Assembly: GCA_020137815.1 (NCBI GenBank)
Contig: CM035350.1
Coordinates: 7,316,001 to 7,380,000 of the forward strand
DNA length: 64,000 nt
Reading direction: 5' to 3'
Origin: Hormiphora californensis
Taxonomy: Eukaryota > Animalia > Ctenophora
Positions 1,609 to 60,600 of the stretch are shown one piece after another (position 1 is the first letter of the stretch; each line of letters opens with the position of its first letter). Both the position numbers and the translations under genes were made by a program. The notes below the pieces were generated by a model, which worked only from the letters and a program-made list of their open reading frames with translations, searched no databases and was not told the origin of the DNA.

Positions 1609-3497
1609 TGTAAGTATGTCTAAAACACTCTCGATTACTTGCAATGGCTGGTAAGAAAACAGAGCGTGATTTAACCGAATCACAGCTGGGAATTTGATTC
1701 GAGCTCAAAGAGCATACTTTTCAGCTATATGGGAGCTTAGTCGAGTATACCTCTACCTGCATATATAATACGGTATTCTGCAGTATTCCATTACAATTTT
1801 TTCACAGCTTTTAGTATATACGCGGATGCATAGCACTAGCAGCTTGAGGCGGGGGATGACCTAGCAATTTAATATAGCACTATGGTAATAGAGTGGTTGC
1901 TAAAATTGGTGAACTGCAGTCGACGCGTTTCTCCCACCATGGTCCAGGAGGTATAGGCTGTCTAAATTGCCGGAATTAGGCTATCTATACTATTTCCAGC
2001 CGAGCTAGTTGCATGTGCAGCAGGGGGCCATGTCGTGGTGGGTGTACAGCTGTGTGCAGTGTGCGAGAGGTAATAAAGCAGCTAATTAATCAAATAAATA
2101 TCTTTCACAATTGCACTTGTTATAATTCACCTGGGAGCTGCTGGCCGGGGCTGCATAACTTGTTCAATATTATATAGGCCTTAGTTTTGTTGTTCGACCT
2201 GACCAGTGGTGACCACACGTGATCATCCGTGATCCGCTAAAAATTACTAATAGCGTTTATGTATTGCCTCTCCATCATCTCTCCAAGTCTTTAGTTATGA
2301 TCTATATATTATTCTCAGCAAAGTCTTCATAGGTTATTATACCTCCTTTATTCCTCTCCCGTCCTGTGCAACTGCTCCCCAAATATCACTAAACAGGTAG
2401 CCCTTAATTCTCTATGATAAATCCCTGTTGTATATCTGTGCTATATTTTATCGCTAACGACCCTCTTACCCATTATATAGCGTATATGTGTGTGTGTGTG
2501 TGTTATGCGTCTCATGAGGCCTAACTTAGTTTATTAGGACTGACCTCTGATGTCGTATTATAACAGCTCCATCAACTAACCTCCAGACCTGAGCATTCGT
2601 CGACTAGCTCTCAGTCTCTCGATATATATCCTTTGATCCGTATCAATTAACTGAAGCAATTTCAGATAAAGATCTTGGTTAAATATCTTTTTGTGGGCGG
2701 ACACAATAATATCTCGATTTAATTGCTGTAACTGTTGTTTTGTAGGTGCGATATAACGCGTAGTTTAATATAGGCTTTGTATCCAGGCGCCGCAGCCTCT
2801 CCCAAGCACCCAATTCAATTGCCAATTAGTGCTATTCGCAGGGGCCTTTGTTCTGCATTATGTTGTGAAACAAAAAGAGAAGTAGTAATCAAAGTTACAT
2901 AAACTGCTTTCCCTCTCTTCTGTTAGTTACAACAGGAACTAGTGGGCTGTGAGAGCTCTTTAGCCTTTGTAGCGCTCTGAAGAACTCATGATGCCGCCCG
3001 CTGCAGAGCATGTTCCTACCCCTATAAATACTCAACTCAACAAGAGCATGCCGTGCACGGAATCTTTAATCCACATGGCCTAAAGACAAGTAAAGTCCTG
3101 CTTTGTCTCATTATGTTAACAGCTGATCGATTCTCATTACAATTCAAGGGTCCCTCCCACTGCACTACTCTCTTGCTTCAAACCTAATTTACATTTCCAC
3201 TCTCTGTATTGCTACTGCATCAGTGGTCCCCCTCTATTGCTCTCTCTTTTCTTGTTCATTATCTGAAGCAATGATCTGGTTCAGATTGTACCTTTGTTCC
3301 AGCAGTATATTGATGCCATGTGTGCCACCTGTAATATTGATCAAATGCCATGGCACCCTTTTTTTATGGGCTCCTAAATCAGTAACAGACTGCCTGGCGG
3401 CGCCAGACCTCGATTTGATTCTCAAGCGGGGTCCACAGCGCCAGACAGGTAACAGAGTGGTACACCTAATGATCCCTATCATATTTCTAGCAGTAAT

Positions 3498-6400
3498 ATG
3501 GGCCACAACACGACCCTCCTGGACTACAGTCATGGGTACAACAGGTCAATAGCCTTTCTGGAGGAGGACTTTGCCAGGTTTGATGTCCACATGGCAGTCC
3601 TGACCATCATAATGACACTCTTTGGGTTGCTCTTTAACATCGTTATATTCTATGTGTTCTGGGGAATGAGGAAGAGTCCCAATGCCCTGATCTTTCTGAA
3701 TCTGGCGGCTGTTGATGTCGTGCTGGCATGCCTCGTCATGCCCTTCTCCGTTACAATCCTAATATCCCGGGCTGTAGGGGTGGATGCCCCTCCTCACTAC
3801 CTCCTGTGTGCGGGGAGCGGCATTGTATTTGAGATGAGTGTGTTGTGTACCGTGGGATTCATCTTCCTTGCCAGTGCGGACAGGTTCCTGGGAGTGTTCC
3901 ACCCGGTCTTCCATAGGAAACACTTTTGCAGGGCTAACCTCCTTAAAATGGTAGGTGTGAAACGTAGAATTGCTGCGTAAAGAATCTCGGTGACCAAATA
4001 TTATATTTTTTTCGTCTATATGGCATGATCATATTCATAATGAGTACTTTTTTAACCTCTCTCTCTCAATCCTGTCTTTTCAGATAACAGGTGTTTGGGT
4101 TGTATCCCCAGTGATAATAATAATATTTGTATCCAGTTGGTTGATAGCATCCTCCTCATCTAACCACATATTCACTAACCTCGACCTCTTCACCGTGTGT
4201 ATGGGGGAATACTGGCTGCGACATGACGAACACTCTCTCCTCAATATCCCCTCCTACGTGACAGTAGTCTTCCTCTCTCTGTTAATGACTGTCATTGTGA
4301 TAGTCAACCTGGCCGTCCTGAAGCAGCTCTTCAGGAGCAGGCCCAAGGCCCGGCACAGCATCGCCAATGGCCCAGCAGCGGCGGATATTAAGAAGAGGAG
4401 GCGGAACAATACTACAATGATAGCCCCACCCATTCTGATCAACTCGGAATCACCCTCAACTAGGTCAGCCAAGAAGCATAATGCCCTGAAGAGGATGTCC
4501 ATGGCGGAGCAGGATGTAAAGGAGTCGGAGAGGATCTTCCACACAGACTCTAACGGTGACGTCACGGGCATCAATATCTCAGCCATTCTTAATCTGTATG
4601 TCAAGTCGACACGATGCCAACCGAAAGTCAAGACCAGGAAACCCAGTATCGCTATGCAAATGTGAGCCTTATATTAGTTTTAGATTTAGTGCAAGTTTTT
4701 CTTTTGCAGCTTGTAAACACATTTAACAGAATTGATCGTTTTTCAAACACTGAACTAAATTCCTCCAGACGTGATATCTTTTGCAGGTCCCGTCACAACT
4801 CGGACCCGAGTATAACAGTGGAGAGAGGGGAAGGACCCCTGACAGAGAGCACCTTGATTTCAGACAGAGGGATCACTCCCAACTCACTCCGACACAGTAT
4901 TGTCGTTGAAGAAGAGGAGAGAAGAGGAGGAGGAAGATGTGTTTACAGACGAAGATGATGAAGAGCTGGTTGAAATTGCAACAGTTAATAGTTGTGTGGG
5001 GAGTCCTAGAGCAACTGTTCCTAGGGGAGGCCGATCAAGTAAGATGTTTGTTAGTAAAGTGTTTGTTTGTAAGTGCTGCGATTCGAACTATGGCATGTCG
5101 CCTCAACGGTCCAAAGTTGTTGAGTACTCAACAACTCCAAAGAGTCTTACTCCCCGTTTGTCAGTTAACCCCGTTTGCTCCAGACGTACCCTCCTTCGCG
5201 TCGAATTCGCCTCTTTCTGTTGCTGAAAATAAAGTGGACGGGGAAATTGTCCGGGAAATGGACCGCAATTAAGTTGGCCTTTCAATTTCCCAGTTGCAAA
5301 AACTAAAAGTGTTTCCAAAAAAGGCCTCATTCCCATGCCAGCAGTTTCCCCGGACAGTGCAGTAATTATTTTATTTTCCAGAGACGTCATATTCCTTTGT
5401 CTGGGAACTAAAAATGCACCCTAACCACTACAAACCACCCACAGGTCTGGACATGGCAGATTTCGAGAGGTCAATATCCGTATCCACCATTGACAATGCC
5501 ACATGCACTGACTGCGATGATGATGATGATGATGACGATGATGACGATGATGACTTTGATTTAGACGATGAGGAATTCCCAGGAATCTGAGACCATCTGG
5601 AAAGTTGTGAAATTTGTAGCAGCTTTGAAACGAAACTCACGGAAACGCCAACTTTGGGTAAGCTGATAAAAACAATCAAGGAGCCACACATTGCATATAT
5701 ATAATTAGCTGTAATCGTATCCCAGCTCTCCTAAAATGATCCGTGACTCCTAAAATGATCCATGACTGAACCCCTAACAATGCAGCAGGAAAATAGTAGA
5801 GCAAACTTGCAGAGTAGGAGTTTGTGCCCTGATTTTGCTGAAACTGCTACCCCCGAGATCCGAACTAATTCCTTTAACAAAAGATCCTCCAAAATGGTGC
5901 GGTGATCAGCACTATATACCAGATCCCATCTGTGTTACATCATATGTTGCAAAGAGGCAGACCAAGATTACAAGAGCATAACTAGAGCATTGAAATACAT
6001 CCCTTGCTCCGAACTGAATCCCAGCTGTTTCGGGGGGCTATGTTAGAAGTTCTACTAGAACTGTCTGGCACCGCCACCCCATCTGAGAATCAAATGGGGT
6101 ATGGCGCCGCCATACAGTACTAGAACAAATACTACTATGTCAGAAGAAGCATATAATAAACTGGAAATCTTGTTGATCGTTGTTTTCAATTTAGAATTCT
6201 CATATAATATCTGCATCGAAACATCAGCATGAAGCCATGACCCCATTTCCCCTGGCCCCTACATATCTCATATCTCTCGTCCCTTCAGGAACTGGTCCGG
6301 AGCAGTAGTGACTCAGACCTGACCATGCTACGAGACACAGCCGAGCTAGATCTAGCAATACACAATGGTAACAGCACCCACGAGGTGAAATCACCCCGAA

Positions 6401-48674: not shown

Positions 48675-51600
48675 TCAGTAGTCAGGTTTATGTCGCTTTT
48701 TCTTCCGGCTACTTGAGCTACTATCATCCGAGTTATACCGCTTATCATCATCAAATTTGGAAGTAAAGGACCGCATTGCAGAAGGTATACCCTGAAAACG
48801 GAAAGGGGTTGTTATTGGGGGAATCAAGTTTTGGCGGGAAAGTACAATATGGTTGAATTTAGAGGGTTAAGAAGTTAAAAGTGATCCAAGTCTGTCTTAA
48901 CTCTATCTAGAATTAATCTCAAGCATCCAATTAGTGAAACTAATTAGATGTCGTGCCCTAATTGACTTTCGTCACCCGGTTTAACTGGCATCAGCCCTAA
49001 TCCTGTGTATCCCCGGCCCTCACGCACTGCTAACCCGCTATACTCTCATCACATCACGCGCACTGCGCGCCCCATCTCCCTCTCAAACTTACCGGCATAT
49101 TCGACCTAGCAGTCTGTCCCTTGAGATCGATCACAACAGCACAGTTGTTGGTCGGCACACACGCCGGGGTACTCCGTCCATAGAGAGTATAGTACAGCTG
49201 GGCTAGTGAGCACCGGAGATTGGGGTCTACATGTTCGTTAAGTAGCCTCCATAACCGGTGCACTAGGTGTAGAGTGTTCAGAAGACAGTCTTGGTGGCGG
49301 GTGAAGAGGGGTAGTTTATAGAGCTGTTGAATAGCATAGCTACGGATCATAGCACTTGTATCAAACTCAACCAGAGAGAGAAGGGTGTTGAGGTCCCGTT
49401 CTGAGTTTTCATTCTGAGAGATGGTGAAATGGGTGAGTAGACTGTATAGAGATAAACAAAACCAAATCAACGACCCTTTCTAAATTCTCGTTCTGATTTC
49501 CTTACCTTAACAAATCTTGCAAGTTGTTGTATGGCAGTACACCGGACATGTAGACTCTGTCCCTTCTTCAAATGGGCACTAAAGATTGAGCTATCCTTGA
49601 GGTTATCCATTATGTGACCATGTCGGATTAGTTTGGCTATAAATCTCAGACAGGCACTGGACACGATTTGTTGGTAGGACGGCATCTTCTTATCGATATT
49701 CAGTAGGGACACTATTTTGGGCAGGATCTGTTTAACATGGCCCAGATGGGTCTCTGCCTTGGTGTCCACTTTGAGTGGTATTGTACTTGTCAGCCCATCA
49801 ATCTGTGAGAAATTGTGAAAATTAAATAATCACTTTGATGACCTGGACTGATATAAATCACAAATATCTAGACAATGTCTAGTAGACATATTGTACTGCA
49901 GTATAATTGGCATTTAAACCTTTCTAACTACTTACAATTGCGACAATAAGGTAACTATCGTCATATTCATTGCTCTGATTATCGTTATAGTGCAGTTGTG
50001 TGGAGAGAAAGTTGACTATCTTTCTAGTAGTCATCCCAGCCTGATCCTTAATATTCCCAACAGCCCTCATGAAGTCCTGTTGTAAGAAGTACTGGGGGAA
50101 ATCTGAGAAGTTGTTCATCCGCGGTATCGTCTCGTTATCTGCACTGCCGTATAGTTTCTAGAGGAGGGAGGGTGTTACCTGGGTGTTACACCATATATGG
50201 GCATTTGACATTTCATCAGGAAGAGACTGATCACGTGGCACACACCACCATATATGGGCATGTTACCTGGAAGAGACTGATCAGGAGGTCCTCATTAACA
50301 GTTGGGTCATTGTTCCCAGAAACGCACTGAGCTAGAGAGTGGAGGGCCTGGATTCGCACTTTATAGAAACACTTGACATCCATGATGACAGTAGACAGGG
50401 TGGAGATGGTCTTTTGGGTTGGGAAATTCACCAACGTCTGGGAAGAGGGAAAGATATGGGTTAGGGAATAGTACTGAACTTTGCTTACAGGAGGAGAGCA
50501 AATAGTGGTTAGTACAAGCAAAACCCCTCCTCCTTCTACCTCAGCAGCATGGTGTTGGTAGACGACATCACGTTCGTGTTGTAACAATGCATGCCAGGAG
50601 TAGTCAGGCATCTGTACATTGATCTTACACAACCATAACATCTCCGGGTCAACCTGGGTGGGGGCATGTTACTAGGGGGGGGGGGGGGGCATGTTACTAG
50701 GGGCGGGGGGGGGGGGGGGGGGGCATGTTACTAGGGGCGGGGGGGGGCATGTTACTAGGGGGGGGGGGGGGGCATGTTACTAGGGGGAGGGGGGCATGTT
50801 ACTAGGGGCGGGCATGTTACTAGGGACTGCATACCCCTCTTCATCTCTTGGTAACAAGCCCTTCCTAATCCAGGAACAGCACTGCCCTTCCGTGTGCCCT
50901 AATTCAATGGGTTTTTCAGTAGCTTATAACAGGAACCCGGTCTTCAATTCTTGGTATTCTAAGTTTTCCTATTGAATCTGACTGCTTATAATGTGTAGCT
51001 CATATTAACAGACATGTGCTAAGAGAGGGAAACATCGCTTAGCTAGAGGCACGATTATATATTCTATTACATTTTTATTGAAGAATAGATTGCCTTATAA
51101 TCTATTCTTCAATAAAAATAGATTATTATATGGTCACTGCCCTCTCTTTCACGATAATAGGAGAGCGAGATCATTGAACAGAATGATTGCATGCTGCATC
51201 CATTATTTTCCTGTTATTGCTCAATGAGGGAATGCGAGAGCAGAGACTAGCAGAGAATAGCAGAGAATAGCAGAGAATAGCAGAGAATAGCAGAGAATAG
51301 CAGAGACTAGTCAAAGCCATCAACTCAGTTGAGCCATTCTGCACTGAGCTTTTTGTAAGTTGGTCCCTAACACGCAAATGGTGGAAACACGGTTCCTTAT
51401 TTCCAACAGTTCTATAAGATTGCTCTCCACTAGAATGAAGATTGAAATTCCCTCAAGTGTCTTCAATCTTCTTTTATGATAGCATATTGGGGTGGTCTAT
51501 AATTGTCTCGGCTAAACTAACCCACAATTGAGGTCTAATGACCCTAATCCACACTTTTTAACCTTGACTAAAGAACTCCTACCATAGGGGATCTTTAGTC

Positions 51601-54600
51601 AAGGAAGATCTCTCTCTCACTCTCTTTTTTTTAAACTCTCACTCTCTGTATTCTCTTGCAATTTATCTTTTTATCTCTCCCTCTCATACTACGAATCCTG
51701 CAGTTATGTAACTCTTCAAGCACATCATCTATATCGAGGTTGGACTTTGATTGTAAATACCATATTATTTGTTTTTCATGGCTATGAGAAATAAATACAT
51801 GGTGCTTTTTCCTTTCTATTTGCACAATTCCGATATAATCTGCCTTGCTCGAACAAAACAACCCGATATGTATATTATATAGTGTTCTTATCATATCATG
51901 TTCATCTCATGTTTGATTTGATTTGAAAAGATATTATATAAACGTACAAATTGCACATTAAATAAATACCCGACTGACTCTTACTAATAGTTTAGCAGCC
52001 TAAGGCGCGAGTGCTTACGTCTTAAAAACCTCATTTAAAAATATTTAAAAAAAAGTAGCTATAAGGCTAAAACACACTCTTATACTAGTTGTAAGCTAAA
52101 TTTATTTCACTCATTAATAATAACAATTATACTTAATACTTACCCTTGATTCCCAATCCCCTACCTTCCTTCCCCCATGAACCATACCCCGAATTTAACG
52201 TCATGTCGACTGTTGGGTAGATGTTAAGATCAGTTATAATTCACATCTGTGGTGCGGGTCCACCATCTTGTTTCAAACTGTTCAACACCACTCCAAACCT
52301 TCAATTTGAGTACAATGTAAGCTATGTGCGGAAGAAGGACAGTTACTGTAAAAATAAAAGAAGAGAAAGGGGCCCACACCACAGCAGCGAATTAAGTTAT
52401 GTCGTGTAAGGCTTTCCAGAGATGGTCTTTCAGTCTAGAGGAAAATAAATGGTGTTCAGCTGTATTTCTCAGTTCTTTAGGAAGTAAGTTCCACTCAAGG
52501 TGGCAGCGATAAAAGTAACAGTTTTTGAACAGGTCTACTCTGGGTTGTTCGGTACATATAATGTCCGTACTGTCTCGTTTTGTTTGTTGTCTGGTGGCAC
52601 GTCTGTCATGTAATTCCGGATTGTATTTTTGTAGGAAAGATGGGAGTTTTATAGGAGACGTCTCATAGAATATTTTATGGAACAATTTAAGATCATTATA
52701 TTGAAATTTTTGAGTCATTGGGAGTACGTCAATCTCCCTGAGTTTCTTTATATACGTATCTAAACTATAACTGGTATCTGTTTCACCGAATATCCATTTT
52801 GTGGCACGTTTCTGGAGTCGTTCAAACTTAAGCAGACTTGACTCACTTTGTGGACGCCATATTTGGCTACAGTGTTCGAACAAAGATCTAACTAGACTAA
52901 TGTAGAGGTTCTTCTTTTTAAGGGGACATTTAACTAATACGCCTACACGCTTCACCAGTCCTAATCTTTGAGAAGCTTTGGAAACAACATTTTTCTGGTG
53001 TTCGATTGGCGACAACTTGTGATTAGTTGAGACTCCTAGATCAACTTCATTTTCACATAATTTGATTTCATCTCTGCCTAGGTGATAATTTAATTGACGT
53101 TGTTTAATAATTTTAGTACACCTAAGCAGCTTACACTTTTTAGGATGGAATATCATTTTATTATCCTTTGCCCATTCCACTAAACTATCGATGTCGGGCT
53201 GCAAACTATCTTCTTCACTATTTATAACCCGCCAAATTTTCAGATCATCTGCATATAGCCTAATTTTAGTTAGATTATCTTCTCTTAAAACATTAACAAT
53301 ATCATTTATGAATAACACAAACAAGAAAGGGCCTAGTATTGATCCTTGTGGAACTCCACTCCTAACCTCTACCCATTCTGAAAATTCCCCATCTAACACA
53401 ACCCTCTGTTGCCTACCAGATAAATAATTCATTAGGAAACGCAACATCTTACCTCCTAAATTAAACTCATTTTTCAGCTTATTTATTATTACATCATGAG
53501 ATACACTATCAAATGCTTTCTGAAAGTCAAAGTAAACTATATCAGTTTGATTTCGGTTATTTATGTTCAACGCTAATTCACAATTAAACTCAATCAGTTG
53601 TGACGTACATGATTTCAAGGGTACAAAACCATGCTGGTAGGGAGTTATTTTTTCTAGACAGGCTTTATACAGGCGTTCTCTTACTAATTTCTCAAAAACT
53701 TTCATAACAAGGCAAGTCAGGGATATAGGCCTATAATTCTCAACGCATGATCGTTCCCCTTTCTTGTAAACTGGGACAACGTTCGCGGTTTTCCATTCTG
53801 TTGGTATACATCCCTCTGAGTATGATTTATTAAATATAAGGGTGAGTGGATAAGCTAGGGATTTATGACATTTCTTTAGTACAACACCGTCAATATTATC
53901 TGGACCTGTTGCTTTTGACGCATCCAACTTTTTTAGAATCTTTAGAATCTCATCAAATCTAAATATCTCAGAGTTAAAATCATTAGTGTGATCTCTATCA
54001 ATATCAACAGTTTCTTTGTAGGTGCTAGATTCAGTGAATTGATTACAGAAAAATTCATTGAACATTTCACATTTACGACGACTCGAAGAGCTAAATTTAT
54101 TATTAAAGTATACTCTCTCAGGAATTCTAGTGCTATTAGTTTTGGACTTTACGTGTTTGAAAAATTTCTTTGATACATTAGCATTTGGTGTAAGTTCATC
54201 TATAGAGGAAAGCTCGAGAAAGGATGTTTCTTTCTCTATTGCTAGTGTTCTGTATTGATGTTCTTTGAGTTCGTATTCCTCTTTAGCAACAATACTATCT
54301 ATATTTTTCAAGAAGGCTTTTCTAGAGTTATCGAACGATTTCTTAAGTTGGCGTAGTTCTTCATCATACCAAGGTGGCTGTGATCCAATTTTTACATTGA
54401 CTAATGGTACATTATGACGTAGTGCAATGTCTAACCTAGACTTAAAGACTTGTAGGGACTGCTCTGCTGACAGATCCTTGAACTGTCCTAACCAATCAAT
54501 TCCTAAAAGCTCTTCATTTAGAGAGTCCCAATCAGCTCTTCTATAGGAGAATTTCTTACAATTTTTATACTTAGGGCGTGATTTTTTGAAATTTATCTCA

Positions 54601-57600
54601 CATTTTAGTGTAAGATGGTCCGACTTTACAAGACTATTCTCTTCGAGCAAAACATTAGAATAAGTAGTTTCTATGTTAGTAAGTATTAAGTCGAGAATAT
54701 TTCCATCCCTATGCGTTGGTACATTAACTAGAGATTTTAGGCCTAGAGATAAAAATAAATTGATAAAACTCTCATGAGTACTATTATTTGACACTGGGAC
54801 GTCCCAGTTATCCACCGAACTTAGGTTTAGATCCCCTATAATAGTGAGATTCTTAAACTTCTTGGCAAGATTAGTATAGTAACGTTCCGCCTCTTTGAAG
54901 TGTTCCGATCCAGAATAATCATATCTATAAAATGTCGAGATACAAATGGGTGCTATATTTTTATGCTTTAGAAGAATAGTAACTATTGGTAAATCGGTCT
55001 TCGTTTTAACTAACTCTGTCTCAACTCCAATATTGTTTTTACATAGTATTAAAACTCCTCCACCTCCTTTTTTACTAAAAGTTTTCATATCCTTCTCAGT
55101 GCTTACTTACTTGATACTTGGAACGGTCTCCTCAATCATTCGAGTGGCCGGCTTCCGGTATCCTCACTCTTAGCGTCGTAAGCTGTCGCCATTCGTTACG
55201 GTTCATTGCAGTCGTAGTAATTGTACGGATAGACTGGGATTTTCCTGTAGCGTCTCGATAGTCATTTAACACACAGGAGGACCAAGTTTTTCGTGGTCTT
55301 CCTCTGGATCGTTTTCCATGACTAGGCACCCAATGATAAAGTCTGTTGGGAACCCTATCCTCAGGCATTCTAATCATGTGCCCAAACCATCGGAGTCTCC
55401 CATTGCCAATGAACGCAGATAATGGTTCTATCCCAGCTCTCTCCAATACCTCCCTGTTAGACACCCGCTTATACCATTGTATTCTCAGGATTCTCCGCAG
55501 GCACCGTTGGTGGAATGCCTCCACGCGGCGATCTTGCACCTGGGTTGTTGTCCAGGCCTCACAACCATAGAGAAGCACCGTCAGAACAGCAGCTCTGTAT
55601 ATCCTGATCTTGGTACAGGTCCTGATGTTACGGTTGTACCAGATCCGACAAAGCATACTGAATGCACTGTAAGCTTTCCCTATCCTGATACCCAGCTCCT
55701 TGTCGATGGTACCATCAGAGGACAAAGCCGATCCGAGATAGGTAAAACTGGAAACCTGCTCAACCGGATTACCCTCCACAGAAATGCTGACCGTATCCGC
55801 CTCGGAAAATGGGCGCTGGCTAAGACCCTTTGAAAAAGCTACAACTTTGGTCTTCTTTGCGTTAATCTTCAAGCCAGCATACCCTGCGTATTTTACCAGC
55901 AAATCTGTAGACTCCTGGAGACCTTCCTCAGTATCATCCATAACAGCCATGTCATCAGCATAGTCGAGGTCCATGATCCATTCCCCACCCTCATCACTCT
56001 CAGCGCCGTGAAGAGTGAGACCCCTGGAGACAGTCTTGTTGGACTCAGCAAGCTGAGCCGCCCAGTTAATCACGATGTTAAAGACTGGAGGACCCTGGAT
56101 GTCGCCTTGACCAGTACCACTGAGAACACTGAACCAGCTGAACATGAACACGTTACTCGCTATCCAACCACTATCAGGTCTGAGAGGGATAACCGTAGCG
56201 AGAACGATCTCGGTATCCTCCCCAAACCTTCTCTTAACCTCCCTAACTAAATCTACATATGCCTTATACACACTCCCTTTTCCCTTACTCGACCTTACAA
56301 ACCCTCCCCAATATCTGATGTCATTAGTCCCAAACGCCAAAATAACCTTATTAACCTCTAGACATGGGTGCGTTACTTCCAGTCCTTTCAACATATCCAT
56401 AGCCAAACTCCCCCTCCAGTTCTCATTCGGCCTACAAAGTCTCGCCCCTGAAATCGAGATGTTCACTAGCGCCGGGTCCTCGTGGATCCACTTCGTCATA
56501 CTGGTTCCTAGTAGAAGTGTCCTTGGTGTCAGTCTGGGGTTCGGCAGTGTTGGTGTTGGTAGAAGGGGCGATCTGGTAGGGAGTACAAAGTTCTCTTCCT
56601 GATACCCATCTATGGCAGGCGGCGAGGTTGGCGACAAAGTCATCTGTGATGCTGGAGCTTCCATCCGAGACGGGTGTACTGCGAACTGGGGCACCTTCTG
56701 GGACTTAGCTGGGGTTGGTGCAGGTGGAGTTGGTTCTGGAGGCGATGTTTTGTGCCTCTTCCTAAAAGACAGGGCATATCTCACGCCATGCTCAACCTTT
56801 TGCGCACGGTGCTTAAAGTGCTCTTGGCACCCTGGCTTCATGGTGTACGCCTCACCATCCTTAGTGGTTATAGACAGCTTAGGCCGCATCCTGCCATCTC
56901 CAAGGTAGGGAATGAAATCTACAGCACCATCGTTGCCGACGGTCACGACGGTGATGGGTGAGTTGTCCACCAGCGAAGTCTCGAAATCTGAGTGGTATCC
57001 CACGCCGTCCCCTTTTCTGTATCTAGTGACTAGGCAGGAGTTAAACTCAGTCCCGTGTTCCTTGTTAATCCTCCCCATCAGCTTATCGATGTTCGGGTAT
57101 TTAGCTATGTCCTTGGGTGCCAGGTCCACATTGGCCCACCCGTAGGGACACCCAGTGTTAGTTAGCCAGGTATTCTTGCCAGTTAATCCTCCTACTTCCC
57201 ATTTCATCATCTCGAGGTCCTCATCAGAAACATATCTCCCGTGGTGGGTAACAAACTGATTCGGATCCTTTTCTGGTACTCCATCTCTCTTACGCCTCTC
57301 TAGCTCCTTTTGTACAATCTGTATAATCCTCTCCAACACGGGCGATGATACCCTGGTAAAGACTTCCTCTAGAGGTGTGTTGTCTAGAATCATGTTGGAG
57401 GCGTTGTTAACAACCATTCCTAAAACTCCATGGCTAAAACAGGCTGTTAATCCAAGAACATTGCGTCCTCAAATTAATTTGTTTAAAGTAGTGCCGAAAA
57501 GCCATTTTACTAAGTGATATGTGTGTTAACGTGATACGTCTCCTTCTCTTCACAGCTGCATTGTGTGCAACAGTTGTTCTCACAGCTATAGGTTCGTCAC

Positions 57601-60600
57601 ATAATATAATATCATAAATATTTGATGCTTTGTAGTTTATAAAATGTTCAATAAACGTTATAGTTTAATTTTAGTTTAATTTTAACTTAGTGGTCAGTGT
57701 CTTTATTTTGTTTCAGAGTGGAGAGTTATAGAGCGGGATGTGAAGATACCCTGGGACCTAGAGGGAACACCTCTCCAAATAAAGACGGACTCTACACTTG
57801 GTAGTAATGAGATAATAAATGTGGCAACGTTCGATAAGGACAGCAAAGTGATCGGTGGTATAAGCGTGAAATTCTCCTCCCCAATGCAGTATCATATAAA
57901 CTTCTGCCTAAAGAGCTTTATAGACCTGCCAGTACAACCCCCGGTCGAGGCGGAAAAGATCTGGATGATCAGCAAAACCGAGACCGCCCTCATTATCACA
58001 TGTAATAATGTGGAGGTGGTGAACTTCCTGTTCGCAGATAGTTCAAGGGAAAACTGTGTTACACAACGGGGTGGGGATATTGTGGATAAGATCTATTTTA
58101 GCATTTATGACACAGCATCCGACTACTTTACCAGAGCAGGTAAGGTCTAAATCTAATGTATGCCACTAATTACGGTACGTGGGTTTAGTAGTGTGTTCAT
58201 TGCTATCTGTAATTTAAATTTCATGAAATGATTTACTTTGCTGTTTTCTCAAAACATGTCGTGTTGTGCGTCAAACCCAGTGGTCTGGCGTTTTCACAGG
58301 TTTGTAAGGTACACCTTGAATGTCTTTAGATCAGGCCATGTGTTAGCTAGCAACTTTTCTAATTTGAATCTTGAATCTAGGGAACATTGCATACCATACC
58401 ATATATATCTACTGTCAGTCGACCCTTTTAAAAACTTTCTTGCAGGTAGAAAGAAAATAAAGCAATTTTTTACCTAGATTTTTATCTAGTCTAAACTAAA
58501 TAACTCAGATATCAGTTATAAACTCTCTGGTTGTGTAACAAATAACACAACCCACAAGGTTGGTATCGAAGACACCTCACACTTCGCGGCCTTCGTTTGG
58601 TGCGCTTTGCGCGCCGGCAAGGGAGGGGTAACTTCGTTACCAACCCACAAGGGACATCAGGGATTGTGTAACCATATCTTATAGTTATTATCAATTAATA
58701 ATTCCTTCTCTCCCCCTGATCTCACAGGCCTGACACCGTGTTGCAACGTGTACAACGTGTATTTACATCATCACGTGCCAAAAGTAGCGTGCCACCCTTT
58801 TTGTGAACTGTCATAGCTCCTTAATTTCAAATCCAATAAAAACCACGTTTTCGATATTGTAATTGTACTGGGTGTTCATTTTGGATCTTTACAAGCGTCG
58901 GGCTTCACCCAGAAAAAAGTTGACAAGATTAGGTCATGATACTTCATACTTGGACTATTCTATACCCTCATTCAAGGTTCCTGGGGGTTTTGGAGCTTTA
59001 GGACCCTGGGAAGTGTGTTTTTGGCATCAAAACTACCAGAAGGAATTTTTTGCTGGTGCTGAGACTTTGCTAAAATGTTTTTTGGGTATTTTCTATGTCA
59101 ATCCTAAAGTTTCATAGAGATTGGATGTGTTTTTCGGACTCAAAATTTCGATAAAAGTGGCTGGAAAGGCTCGAAAACAGCTCAAAAACGGCTAAAATTG
59201 AGTCTTTCCAGCCACTTTTTACGAAATTTTGAGTCTGAAAAACACATCCAATCTCCATGAAACTTTAGGATTGACATAGAAAATACCCAAAAAACATTTT
59301 AGCAAAGTCTCAGCACCAGCAAAAAAATTTCTTCTGGTAGTTTTGATACCAAAAACACACTTCCCAGGGTCCTAAAGCTCCAAAACCCCCAGGAACCTTG
59401 AATGAGGGTATAGAATAGTCTAAGTATGAAGTATCATGACCTAATCTTGTCAACTTTTTTCTGGGTGAAGCCCAACGCTTGTAAAGATCCAAAATGAACA
59501 CCGTGTACAATGACTAGGGGGGGGGGTGTGGCATATTACTAGGGGGAGGGGGGCATGTTAATAGGGGGGGGGGGGGGCATGTTACTATACTCGGGGGGGG
59601 GGGGGGGCAATGAAATGTATCACTATAATTAGTTGAAGTAGTAGTAGTAGGGGAAGCAAGAAATAGTGATCAAATTGGGGTGATGAAATATTAACTTTAA
59701 CAGATCTACATTGCATGTACTGATTGTACCTACCCGAAGCCAGATGAGGGGGCTATCCTGATCAGTGTGAGAGAGATCAATATCCACCTCCTCCCCTGTG
59801 AATAGTGGTATTTTCTTTTTCTTGTTTCTCCTGCTCTTCGACTGACAGACTAGCTCCTGCAGATCATCATTCTGCTCCACCTGGCGGGGGGGGGGGGGGG
59901 GGTAGATAAACCGGTGGAGGGGGGGGGTGTTAGGTAAACTGGGGGGTGGATGGGGTTGTTAGGTAAACTGGAAGGCAATGTAGTAAAATGAAATAAGTTT
60001 GAGGAGGAAGGTAATTGAATCCTGGTATGTTACCTGGTATGTTATTATTATTATTATTATTATGTTACCTGTAGAGTATTAGAGAATGACCCATCTATCT
60101 CCTGGACAAGTACCGTTAGTTGCCCAACATATTTATCACTGTCATGTAGCGGCTTCTGTTTTATTGTCACATCAGCCAGGTTTCGCTTCCGATTAAAAGC
60201 GAAACTAAAGTTTAGGATACTGAACCCGGGTTGATAAACGTATCTGTTTACAAATTCTGACAGATCTTTCCCACACTCCATCTGGATTGTATTGAGGAAG
60301 TCTTGTGCTGTTAGGAGGGCGTTTATACTGCTACTCTCACCCGAGGGGTTAGTCCACGCTAGTGCTAGCAACTTTTTAATAACATTTTGAAAGTGGATCT
60401 TCTCCCCCAACCTAGCCTCAACTATCCGCATCACTAACATGCTCTTTAGCTCCATTAGTTCCACGATATGGGGCGGGGTCAGGATGGGGTCCATATGGAA
60501 GGTCTGGGCGTTGGAACCCGAGGTCAGGGCATAACTCTGGGTTTTATCCTTCAAGTGAAGTGGGGGTAGGAGTTGGTTACACTCAGCCTTGTAGACCCTG

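Follow-up and report, generated by a model that had tools for sequence, protein, structure and literature searches.

Can a long interspersed nuclear element (LINE) carry, within its own ORF1 protein, an enzyme that demethylates nucleic acids? The question is raised by a 64,000-nucleotide (nt) stretch of the genome of the comb jelly Hormiphora californensis (GenBank assembly GCA_020137815.1, contig CM035350.1, positions 7,316,001 to 7,380,000; hereafter the window, whose own positions are used throughout). In it, an earlier note made from the sequence alone had read an open reading frame (ORF) as the ORF1 of a retrotransposon, in which an AlkB-family demethylase is fused to an SGNH esterase, upstream of an endonuclease-reverse transcriptase (EN-RT) ORF of the CR1/L2 type. 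We hold with high confidence that this architecture is genuine and that it belongs to a LINE. The family layout is a spliced leader, a 50-nt untranslated region (UTR), ORF1 (helix, AlkB domain, proline-rich linker and esterase) and ORF2 (EN-RT), and the window element is a broken copy of such a CR1-group LINE, damaged by a fragment of a second LINE.

All parts of the element lie on the minus strand. The ORF1 frame runs stop-to-stop from 57468 to 55132 (778 amino acids, aa), and its ORF1-coding part, from an ATG at 57417 to 56140, encodes the AlkB domain, the linker and the esterase; residues are numbered from this ATG, and Pfam matches are given in positions of the stop-to-stop ORF. As the earlier note had proposed, the AlkB-type Fe(II)/2-oxoglutarate (2OG) dioxygenase domain (aa 51-222, 56752..57267) is complete. 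PF13532 (2OG-FeII_Oxy_2) matches aa 96-228 with an E-value of 3.5e-12, the HSD motif lies at 56994-56986, the second histidine at 56811 and RYALSFR at 56781-56761, giving H142, D144 and H203 as iron ligands and R213 and R219 as 2OG arginines, with the HxD...H triad and the RxxxxxR pair intact. AlphaFold models the domain as a double-stranded beta-helix fold with a nucleotide-recognition lid (W84, Y92 and W94), at a predicted local distance difference test score (pLDDT) of mostly 73-95, and it is very probably an active dioxygenase. Ahead of it, in aa 16-45 (57283..57372), the model places helices at residues 16-22 and 25-45, which are conserved in relatives and could possibly form an oligomerisation element.

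The proline-rich linker, likewise recognised in the note, spans aa 223-296 (56530..56751), has 19 prolines in 74 aa and is modelled as disordered (pLDDT below 50). Two short contigs from run X9 give a small sample of 21 listed substitutions: 11 fall in the AlkB domain, 8 of them synonymous, and 10 in the linker, of which one is synonymous (Fisher p = 0.008), so that the linker is read as fast-evolving. In the esterase (56140..56529), blocks I-III are where the note had seen them, with GTS at S306 (S at 56502), G324 (56448) and GTND at N365 (N at 56325), and Pfam returns a weak Lipase_GDSL_2 match at aa 335-431 (E 0.0014). The domain as a whole is incomplete in this copy, which lost its last ~60 aa, including block V (D-x-x-H), at the 56140 junction; block V is present in full-length relatives. 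In one of these, P0289, the complete esterase domain is modelled as an SGNH fold at pLDDT 95, and the family esterase profile matches the esterase of the ZfL2-1 ORF1 protein (PDB 4c1b) with an E-value of 1.8e-12, ranked behind bacterial SGNH enzymes.

What ends the esterase at this point? The note had placed the end of the ORF1 frame at 56141; in fact 'VFMF' are the last esterase residues before the break at 56140, beyond which the same frame encodes the C-terminal 335 aa of another, unrelated RT, with RVT_1 (ORF1-frame aa 446-580) and DUF6451 matches in Pfam. This secondary insertion (55102..56140), which the note had missed together with the spliced leader described below, is a 5'-truncated RT fragment, at best ~25% identical to the CR1-group ORF2 set, with a short tandem tail at its end, near 55102; its motifs suggest that it is RTE-like. 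Compared with intact relatives, it replaces 60 aa of ORF1, block V included, and the 239 N-terminal aa of ORF2. The co-oriented EN-RT frame that the note had reported downstream is there (55106-52392, RVT_1 E 2.3e-31), but as a remnant (52392..55100) that keeps the C-terminal part of EN, RT and the C-terminal region; we keep CR1-group as its label, provisionally and on the strength of motifs. The remnant is 92.8% identical to the intact ORF2 P0159 and 90.4% identical to P0038.

Contigs assembled from sequencing runs diverge from the window at 56139/56140, on both sides of the junction. A 1077-nt contig from X1 (contig 7, 5 differences) follows the window over 57042-56139 and then carries 173 other letters, and contigs of the inserted piece bear other sequence past 56140; read by hand, contig 7 and a loose end in X6 and X8 continue the esterase past 56139 as in the relative P0003. 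In X1, contigs have a depth of 348-487 across ORF1; in ORF2 the depth climbs from 345-505 at the 5' end to 1389 at the 3' end, the insertion has 2400-4200, and one flank has ~48-51. As contig depth is not copy number, we use these values as a pattern only, which fits one 5'-truncating interspersed family interrupted by a commoner LINE. The contigs also contain a second subfamily (window positions 57446, 57463 and 54042-54903), with an ORF2 ~90% identical and an X1 depth of about one third.

We then asked whether the domain layout recurs elsewhere. Searching with the single sequence gave 13 proteins at 25-86% identity, 11 of them with both Pfam domains; two of the clusters include Pleurobrachia bachei models, and annotation treats some P. 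bachei and Mnemiopsis leidyi members as host proteins. With a profile, 327 of 1.84 billion 50%-cluster representatives matched at E<=1e-30. Among the best 150 of these, 117 have AlkB followed by SGNH (>40 bits each), most of the remaining 33 are short or score for one domain, and at least three have the full length but score below 40 for the esterase. The note had considered that the catalytic residues might vary among copies. In the rows of the 117 that cover each site, however, the iron ligands are invariant (H 114/114, D 114/114, H 117/117) and the 2OG arginines nearly so (114/116 and 113/116), as are the esterase serine (110/111), glycine (116/117), asparagine (115/117) and block V histidine (104/108). 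The lid aromatics are kept at position 84 in 94/94, as tyrosine at 92 in 86/94 and at position 94 in 88/94. Neighbouring alignment columns, unlike the catalytic residues, vary freely, and compared in pairs the AlkB domains have a median identity of 31%.

More than 100 of the clusters are <50% identical to one another, and the source contigs of the relatives are LINE-sized (5-7 kb). Because the Pfam E-values are joined by this number of diverged relatives with the same layout, a chance origin of the layout is, on sequence grounds, excluded. Seven proteins have a tandem AlkB-AlkB-SGNH arrangement (P0250, P0254, P0260, P0261, P0263, P0264 and P0271), M. leidyi KAL5265523.1 being among them; their first and second AlkB domains group separately in the tree described below, which suggests one old duplication. 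The Atlas clusters with both domains have 103, 61 and 66 members, few of them with a taxon and those mostly Ctenophora. A metagenome scan with the single ORF1 protein yielded 0 of 57 candidates, the same scan with an alignment 2 of 108, and a prokaryote scan 0 of 24. Taken together, these sequences describe an ORF1 group that is large, old and so far ctenophore, and many annotated ctenophore 'AlkB genes' are probably transposon ORF1s.

Is this ORF1 type attached to CR1-group ORF2s beyond the window? At locus L001 an AlkB-SGNH ORF1, whose AlkB domain nests inside the ORF1 clade of the tree, is followed after ~130 nt by the start of an ORF2 (NPGP, YYQN) with 47% identity (E 2e-46) to P0123, a homolog of the window ORF2. 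Locus L002 is a complete element, in which an ORF1 with PHD, a coiled region, AlkB and an SGNH-like tail (called from motifs by eye, with no Pfam match) precedes a PHD-EN-RT ORF2 that is more distant, at 25% identity to that of the window. In protein P0038 an ORF2 with 90% identity to that of the window opens with the first 38 ORF1 residues where P0159 has the normal start, and in P0275 and P0300 AlkB and part of the esterase are fused to EN or to linker/RT parts of the same ORF2 clade. The claim of a CR1-group LINE ORF1 with both enzymes is thus borne out by two loci and three proteins, and the AlkB segment is neither single-copy nor unlinked to the ORF2, as the note had allowed it might be. 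Most of ORF1, or parts of both ORFs, are absent from the in-frame fusions P0038, P0275 and P0300, which may derive from deletions, spliced RNAs or assembly; at the protein level the P0038 junction has no clear canonical splice signals. P0032 and P0078, both on contigs of 5893 nt, were tried as a linked ORF1-ORF2 pair and rejected as a single coincidence compatible with chance. Separately, of 124 long ORF2 homologs, 120 have an NPGP motif between a hydrophobic N-terminal region and the endonuclease (N-termini of P0038-P0196; L001 1910-2464); the motif resembles the 2A-like peptides reported for LINEs (PMC3708506).

The 5' end of the element is marked by a host sequence. Positions 57501-57468 are identical at 32 of 34 nt to the last 34 nt of the H. 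californensis spliced leader (PMC8527503), the next-best leader match within the window being 21/34. The leader is followed by GA, then by the 50-nt UTR (57418..57467, with two short upstream ORFs of 4 and 3 codons) and the ATG. Because GA stands in place of a GT splice donor, we rejected a spliced leader RNA gene at 57501-57468 and read the segment as a retro-copied leader. An X1 unitig (57114-57493, depth 454, 0 differences) links ORF1 to the leader without a branch and at the depth of the family. The leader is therefore probably common to copies, and the element was most likely copied from a trans-spliced RNA. In flatworms, 597 loci with a partial spliced leader at LINE-associated copies have been read as retrotransposition of trans-spliced RNA (PMC12582326). 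The comb-jelly case shares the partial leader at a LINE-associated locus, and differs in that the leader stands 50 nt before the ORF1 start and, as the contigs suggest, is common to family copies. L002 has a leader-like sequence at 160-193 (27/34, no GT after it), ~1.1 kb upstream of its ORF1 frame.

Which AlkB enzymes does the domain resemble? Foldseek ranks ALKBH2 first (E 7e-13, TM-score by target 0.71) and ALKBH3 next, followed by ALKBH6, ALKBH5, E. coli AlkB, ALKBH8 and FTO at ~1e-10 to 8e-9. In searches with family profiles, ALKBH3 and ALKBH2 score 1e-18 to 1e-12, E. coli AlkB scores 3e-4, and ALKBH5 and FTO are absent from the matches at E<=0.01; lid positions 92 and 94 align with the ALKBH2 lid (Y-x-W/F). 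By profile and by predicted fold, the domain is closer to ALKBH2/3, which repair 1-methyladenine (m1A) and 3-methylcytosine (m3C), than to ALKBH5, FTO or ALKBH8. The human ALKBH2 and ALKBH3 differ from it in being stand-alone cellular enzymes, and were compared by similarity alone.

The tree holds 60 domains and no cellular rows: 54 from ORF1 proteins (25 of them drawn at random from a larger set), four plant-virus-like and two from giant viruses. In it 53 ORF1 rows form the starred branch (98/92), apart from an RNA-virus branch (100/98; four rows on long branches), and the AlkB of L002 falls outside the ORF1 branch, on a long branch. The ORF1 profile gives plant-virus AlkBs 32-38 bits against 82 and 50 bits for the two giant-virus AlkBs, which are stand-alone genes on one giant-virus contig (L004, 1516-2238 and 6248-6856). 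The plant RNA virus enzymes (PMC2553587) are like the comb-jelly domain in being built into a replication protein of a parasite with an RNA stage, in falling into the m1A/m3C repair class, as far as similarity places the comb-jelly domain, and in an NSCL-type strand and an HxDxE motif. The likeness that the note had drawn to them holds for these motifs and is not supported as phylogenetic closeness, by tree or by profile score, and the sequences give no sign of transfer from plant RNA virus AlkBs as a direct source. A search with an AlkB-only alignment for stand-alone donors returned two fragments, 66% identical to the window domain; Atlas neighbours of the domain are phage, giant-virus and Bacteroidota AlkBs, with PHROG 21963 matched, and serve as leads only.

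What might such a domain do for a LINE? m1A and m3C block reverse transcriptases. We find it reasonably probable that the AlkB domain removes base-pair-blocking methyl groups of the m1A/m3C type from the element RNA, for full-length reverse transcription; that its substrate is nucleic acid carrying modifications of this type seems somewhat better than an even bet. The element RNA would gain the host leader by trans-splicing and be copied back as far as that leader. The ORF1 protein would assemble on the RNA, with the AlkB lid doubling as the folded nucleic-acid-binding module otherwise wanting in esterase-type ORF1 proteins; Fe/2OG-dependent oxidation would free the template, or single-stranded cDNA, before or during target-primed reverse transcription; and the esterase may take the membrane or lipid role proposed for ZfL2-1. 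For AlkB enzymes of this class, reversal of m1A and m3C is established, and those of viruses repair and prefer RNA (PMC2553587); LINE ORF1 proteins are presumed to package element RNA, and the esterase-type ORF1 proteins in RepBase are described as being without a folded RNA-binding domain (PMC3905857). A wider scenario, which we regard as speculative and doubtful, is an old epitranscriptomic arms race, in which the packaging protein of a ctenophore LINE would carry a demethylase (twice in one lineage) against host methyl marks that stall reverse transcription, and the elements, which would need no promoter of their own, would acquire the host spliced leader through read-through transcription.

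Several points weigh against this linkage and mechanism. DNA context is at hand for two loci, L001 and L002, the other relatives being proteins without neighbours, and the run contigs examined, including those of four metagenome runs searched for a bridge from ORF1 to ORF2, gave short pieces but no contig with a complete ORF1 and ORF2 of the exact window subfamily. The ORF1 head of P0038 is 89% identical to P0004 and 76% to the window, so that this link runs through a sister subfamily, and all three fusion proteins could be products of assembly or deletion. The conservation counts are inflated, as the 150 representatives were chosen by a profile that rewards conserved residues. Identity to ALKBH2/3 is only ~20%, and ALKBH6, ALKBH5, AlkB and FTO trail in the structural comparison by a few orders of E-value. 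The mechanism draws its support from sequence and model, the contigs from RNA runs (X7 and X10) being short, of low depth and possibly DNA.

Could the AlkB-esterase ORF have come with the inserted fragment? It would then belong to an RTE-like element, an internally deleted LINE of the RTEX type, and the CR1 ORF2 would be a chance neighbour. The in-frame fusion of the AlkB-esterase with the RTE-like piece suits such an origin, RTE/RTEX elements can have esterase ORF1s (PMC3905857), and 5' truncation would likewise give a higher depth at the 3' piece. Yet L001, L002, P0038, P0275 and P0300 tie the ORF1 type to CR1-group ORF2s, and the RTE-like piece has no match among the proteins of the ORF1 set, which makes this origin very improbable. 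Scarcely credible, too, is the reading of AlkB-SGNH as a family of host genes that multiplied as processed retrocopies and has no part in LINE replication: although a 5' leader also marks processed host mRNA, and members have been annotated as host proteins in P. bachei and M. leidyi, the ORF stands upstream of EN-RT in L001 and L002, occurs in fusion proteins, lies on contigs of LINE size and has diverged into its many clusters of <50% identity. Even jointly, a non-CR1 or host origin is highly unlikely.

Within the CR1-group LINE, the dioxygenase might instead erase a host-written regulatory mark, N6-methyladenosine (m6A) or another, from LINE RNA or cDNA as a counter-defence. Retention in >100 lineages and the one tandem duplication (seven proteins) fit a lasting conflict, substrates can shift inside the AlkB family (PMC4738411), and an AlkB borne by an orchid Gypsy element demethylates m6A in vitro (PMC9289625). 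We consider a host-mark eraser unlikely, however: profile and fold lie nearer ALKBH2/3 than ALKBH5/FTO, which favours m1A/m3C repair over it, and in human L1 m6A aids retrotransposition whereas ALKBH5 suppresses it (PMC7873242). It is quite unlikely that the enzyme acts on some other target (target-site DNA lesions, protein, cap or a tRNA-type modification) or is mainly an RNA-binding fold. In favour are the low identity to every solved AlkB and the want of a folded RNA-binding domain in esterase ORF1 proteins (PMC3905857). A role in binding only is at odds with the invariant ligands for metal and 2OG, and the conserved lid aromatics, which align with the lid of ALKBH2, also speak against this reading.

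How does a LINE ORF1 protein that would repair m1A/m3C compare with known systems? Its closest counterpart is the esterase-type (type IV) ORF1 of CR1/L2 LINEs, such as ZfL2-1 (PMC3905857, PMC4120745, PMC13343379), which likewise has a C-terminal SGNH esterase with an intact active site, a helical region and a variable linker ahead of it, and a position upstream of EN-RT. The comb-jelly ORF1 differs in having an AlkB domain, or two in some members, in front of the esterase. In the CR1/L2 set of PMC4120745, as far as its passages go, esterase ORF1s occur in vertebrate subgroups only, whereas the AlkB-esterase ORF1s described here are from ctenophores. The word AlkB does not occur in the ORF1/CR1 surveys PMC4120745 and PMC13343379, nor in PMC5563155, and the passages of PMC4738411 that we drew on make no mention of a LINE-encoded AlkB. 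The literature searched, as titles and starts of abstracts, holds no AlkB-bearing LINE; subscription papers, supplements, Repbase or Dfam may hold such an annotation. The orchid element, a Ty3/Gypsy retrotransposon of Phalaenopsis (PMC9289625), is a precedent for a retrotransposon-borne AlkB-family dioxygenase proposed to act on element RNA. There the enzyme is a separate ORF of a long terminal repeat element, an ALKBH5-like m6A demethylase that is recent and confined to orchids; that of the comb jelly is fused into the ORF1 protein of a non-LTR element, ALKBH2/3-like, old and highly diversified.

The AlkB-SGNH protein would be a new LINE ORF1 architecture, a packaging protein with two enzymes, in one of the earliest-branching animal lineages, and it is not a one-off, its active site being kept in >100 lineages <50% identical. 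One small soluble domain would open two questions to test: does a methylated RNA template hold back full-length retrotransposition, and do hosts use the methylation of RNA as a weapon on LINEs? The way in which esterase-type ORF1 proteins could bind RNA may also find its answer here, as may the origin of some of the leader copies that number hundreds in ctenophore genomes.

The element ends in a 3' UTR (52100..52391, end approximate) with an AATAAA near 52106-52101. No target-site duplication was found, the best candidates being 7 nt long and not flush with the element ends, and an Rfam scan of 51800-58600 gave no match. The whole element appears to lie in sense orientation inside a ~9.1 kb intron of the host gene TAF2 (50654..59733, minus strand), a gene model that we infer from TAF2 Pfam matches flanking the element on either side, with intron limits set at GT/AG read from the sequence. 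The same intron contains a 657-nt near-perfect inverted repeat (93%) at 58859-59514, probably a foldback element or miniature inverted-repeat transposable element, and a high-depth repeat at 57686-58150 has a 154-aa plus-strand frame without a Pfam match. The same G-rich minisatellite lies at either end of the TAF2 intron, at 50646-50825 and 59513-59608.

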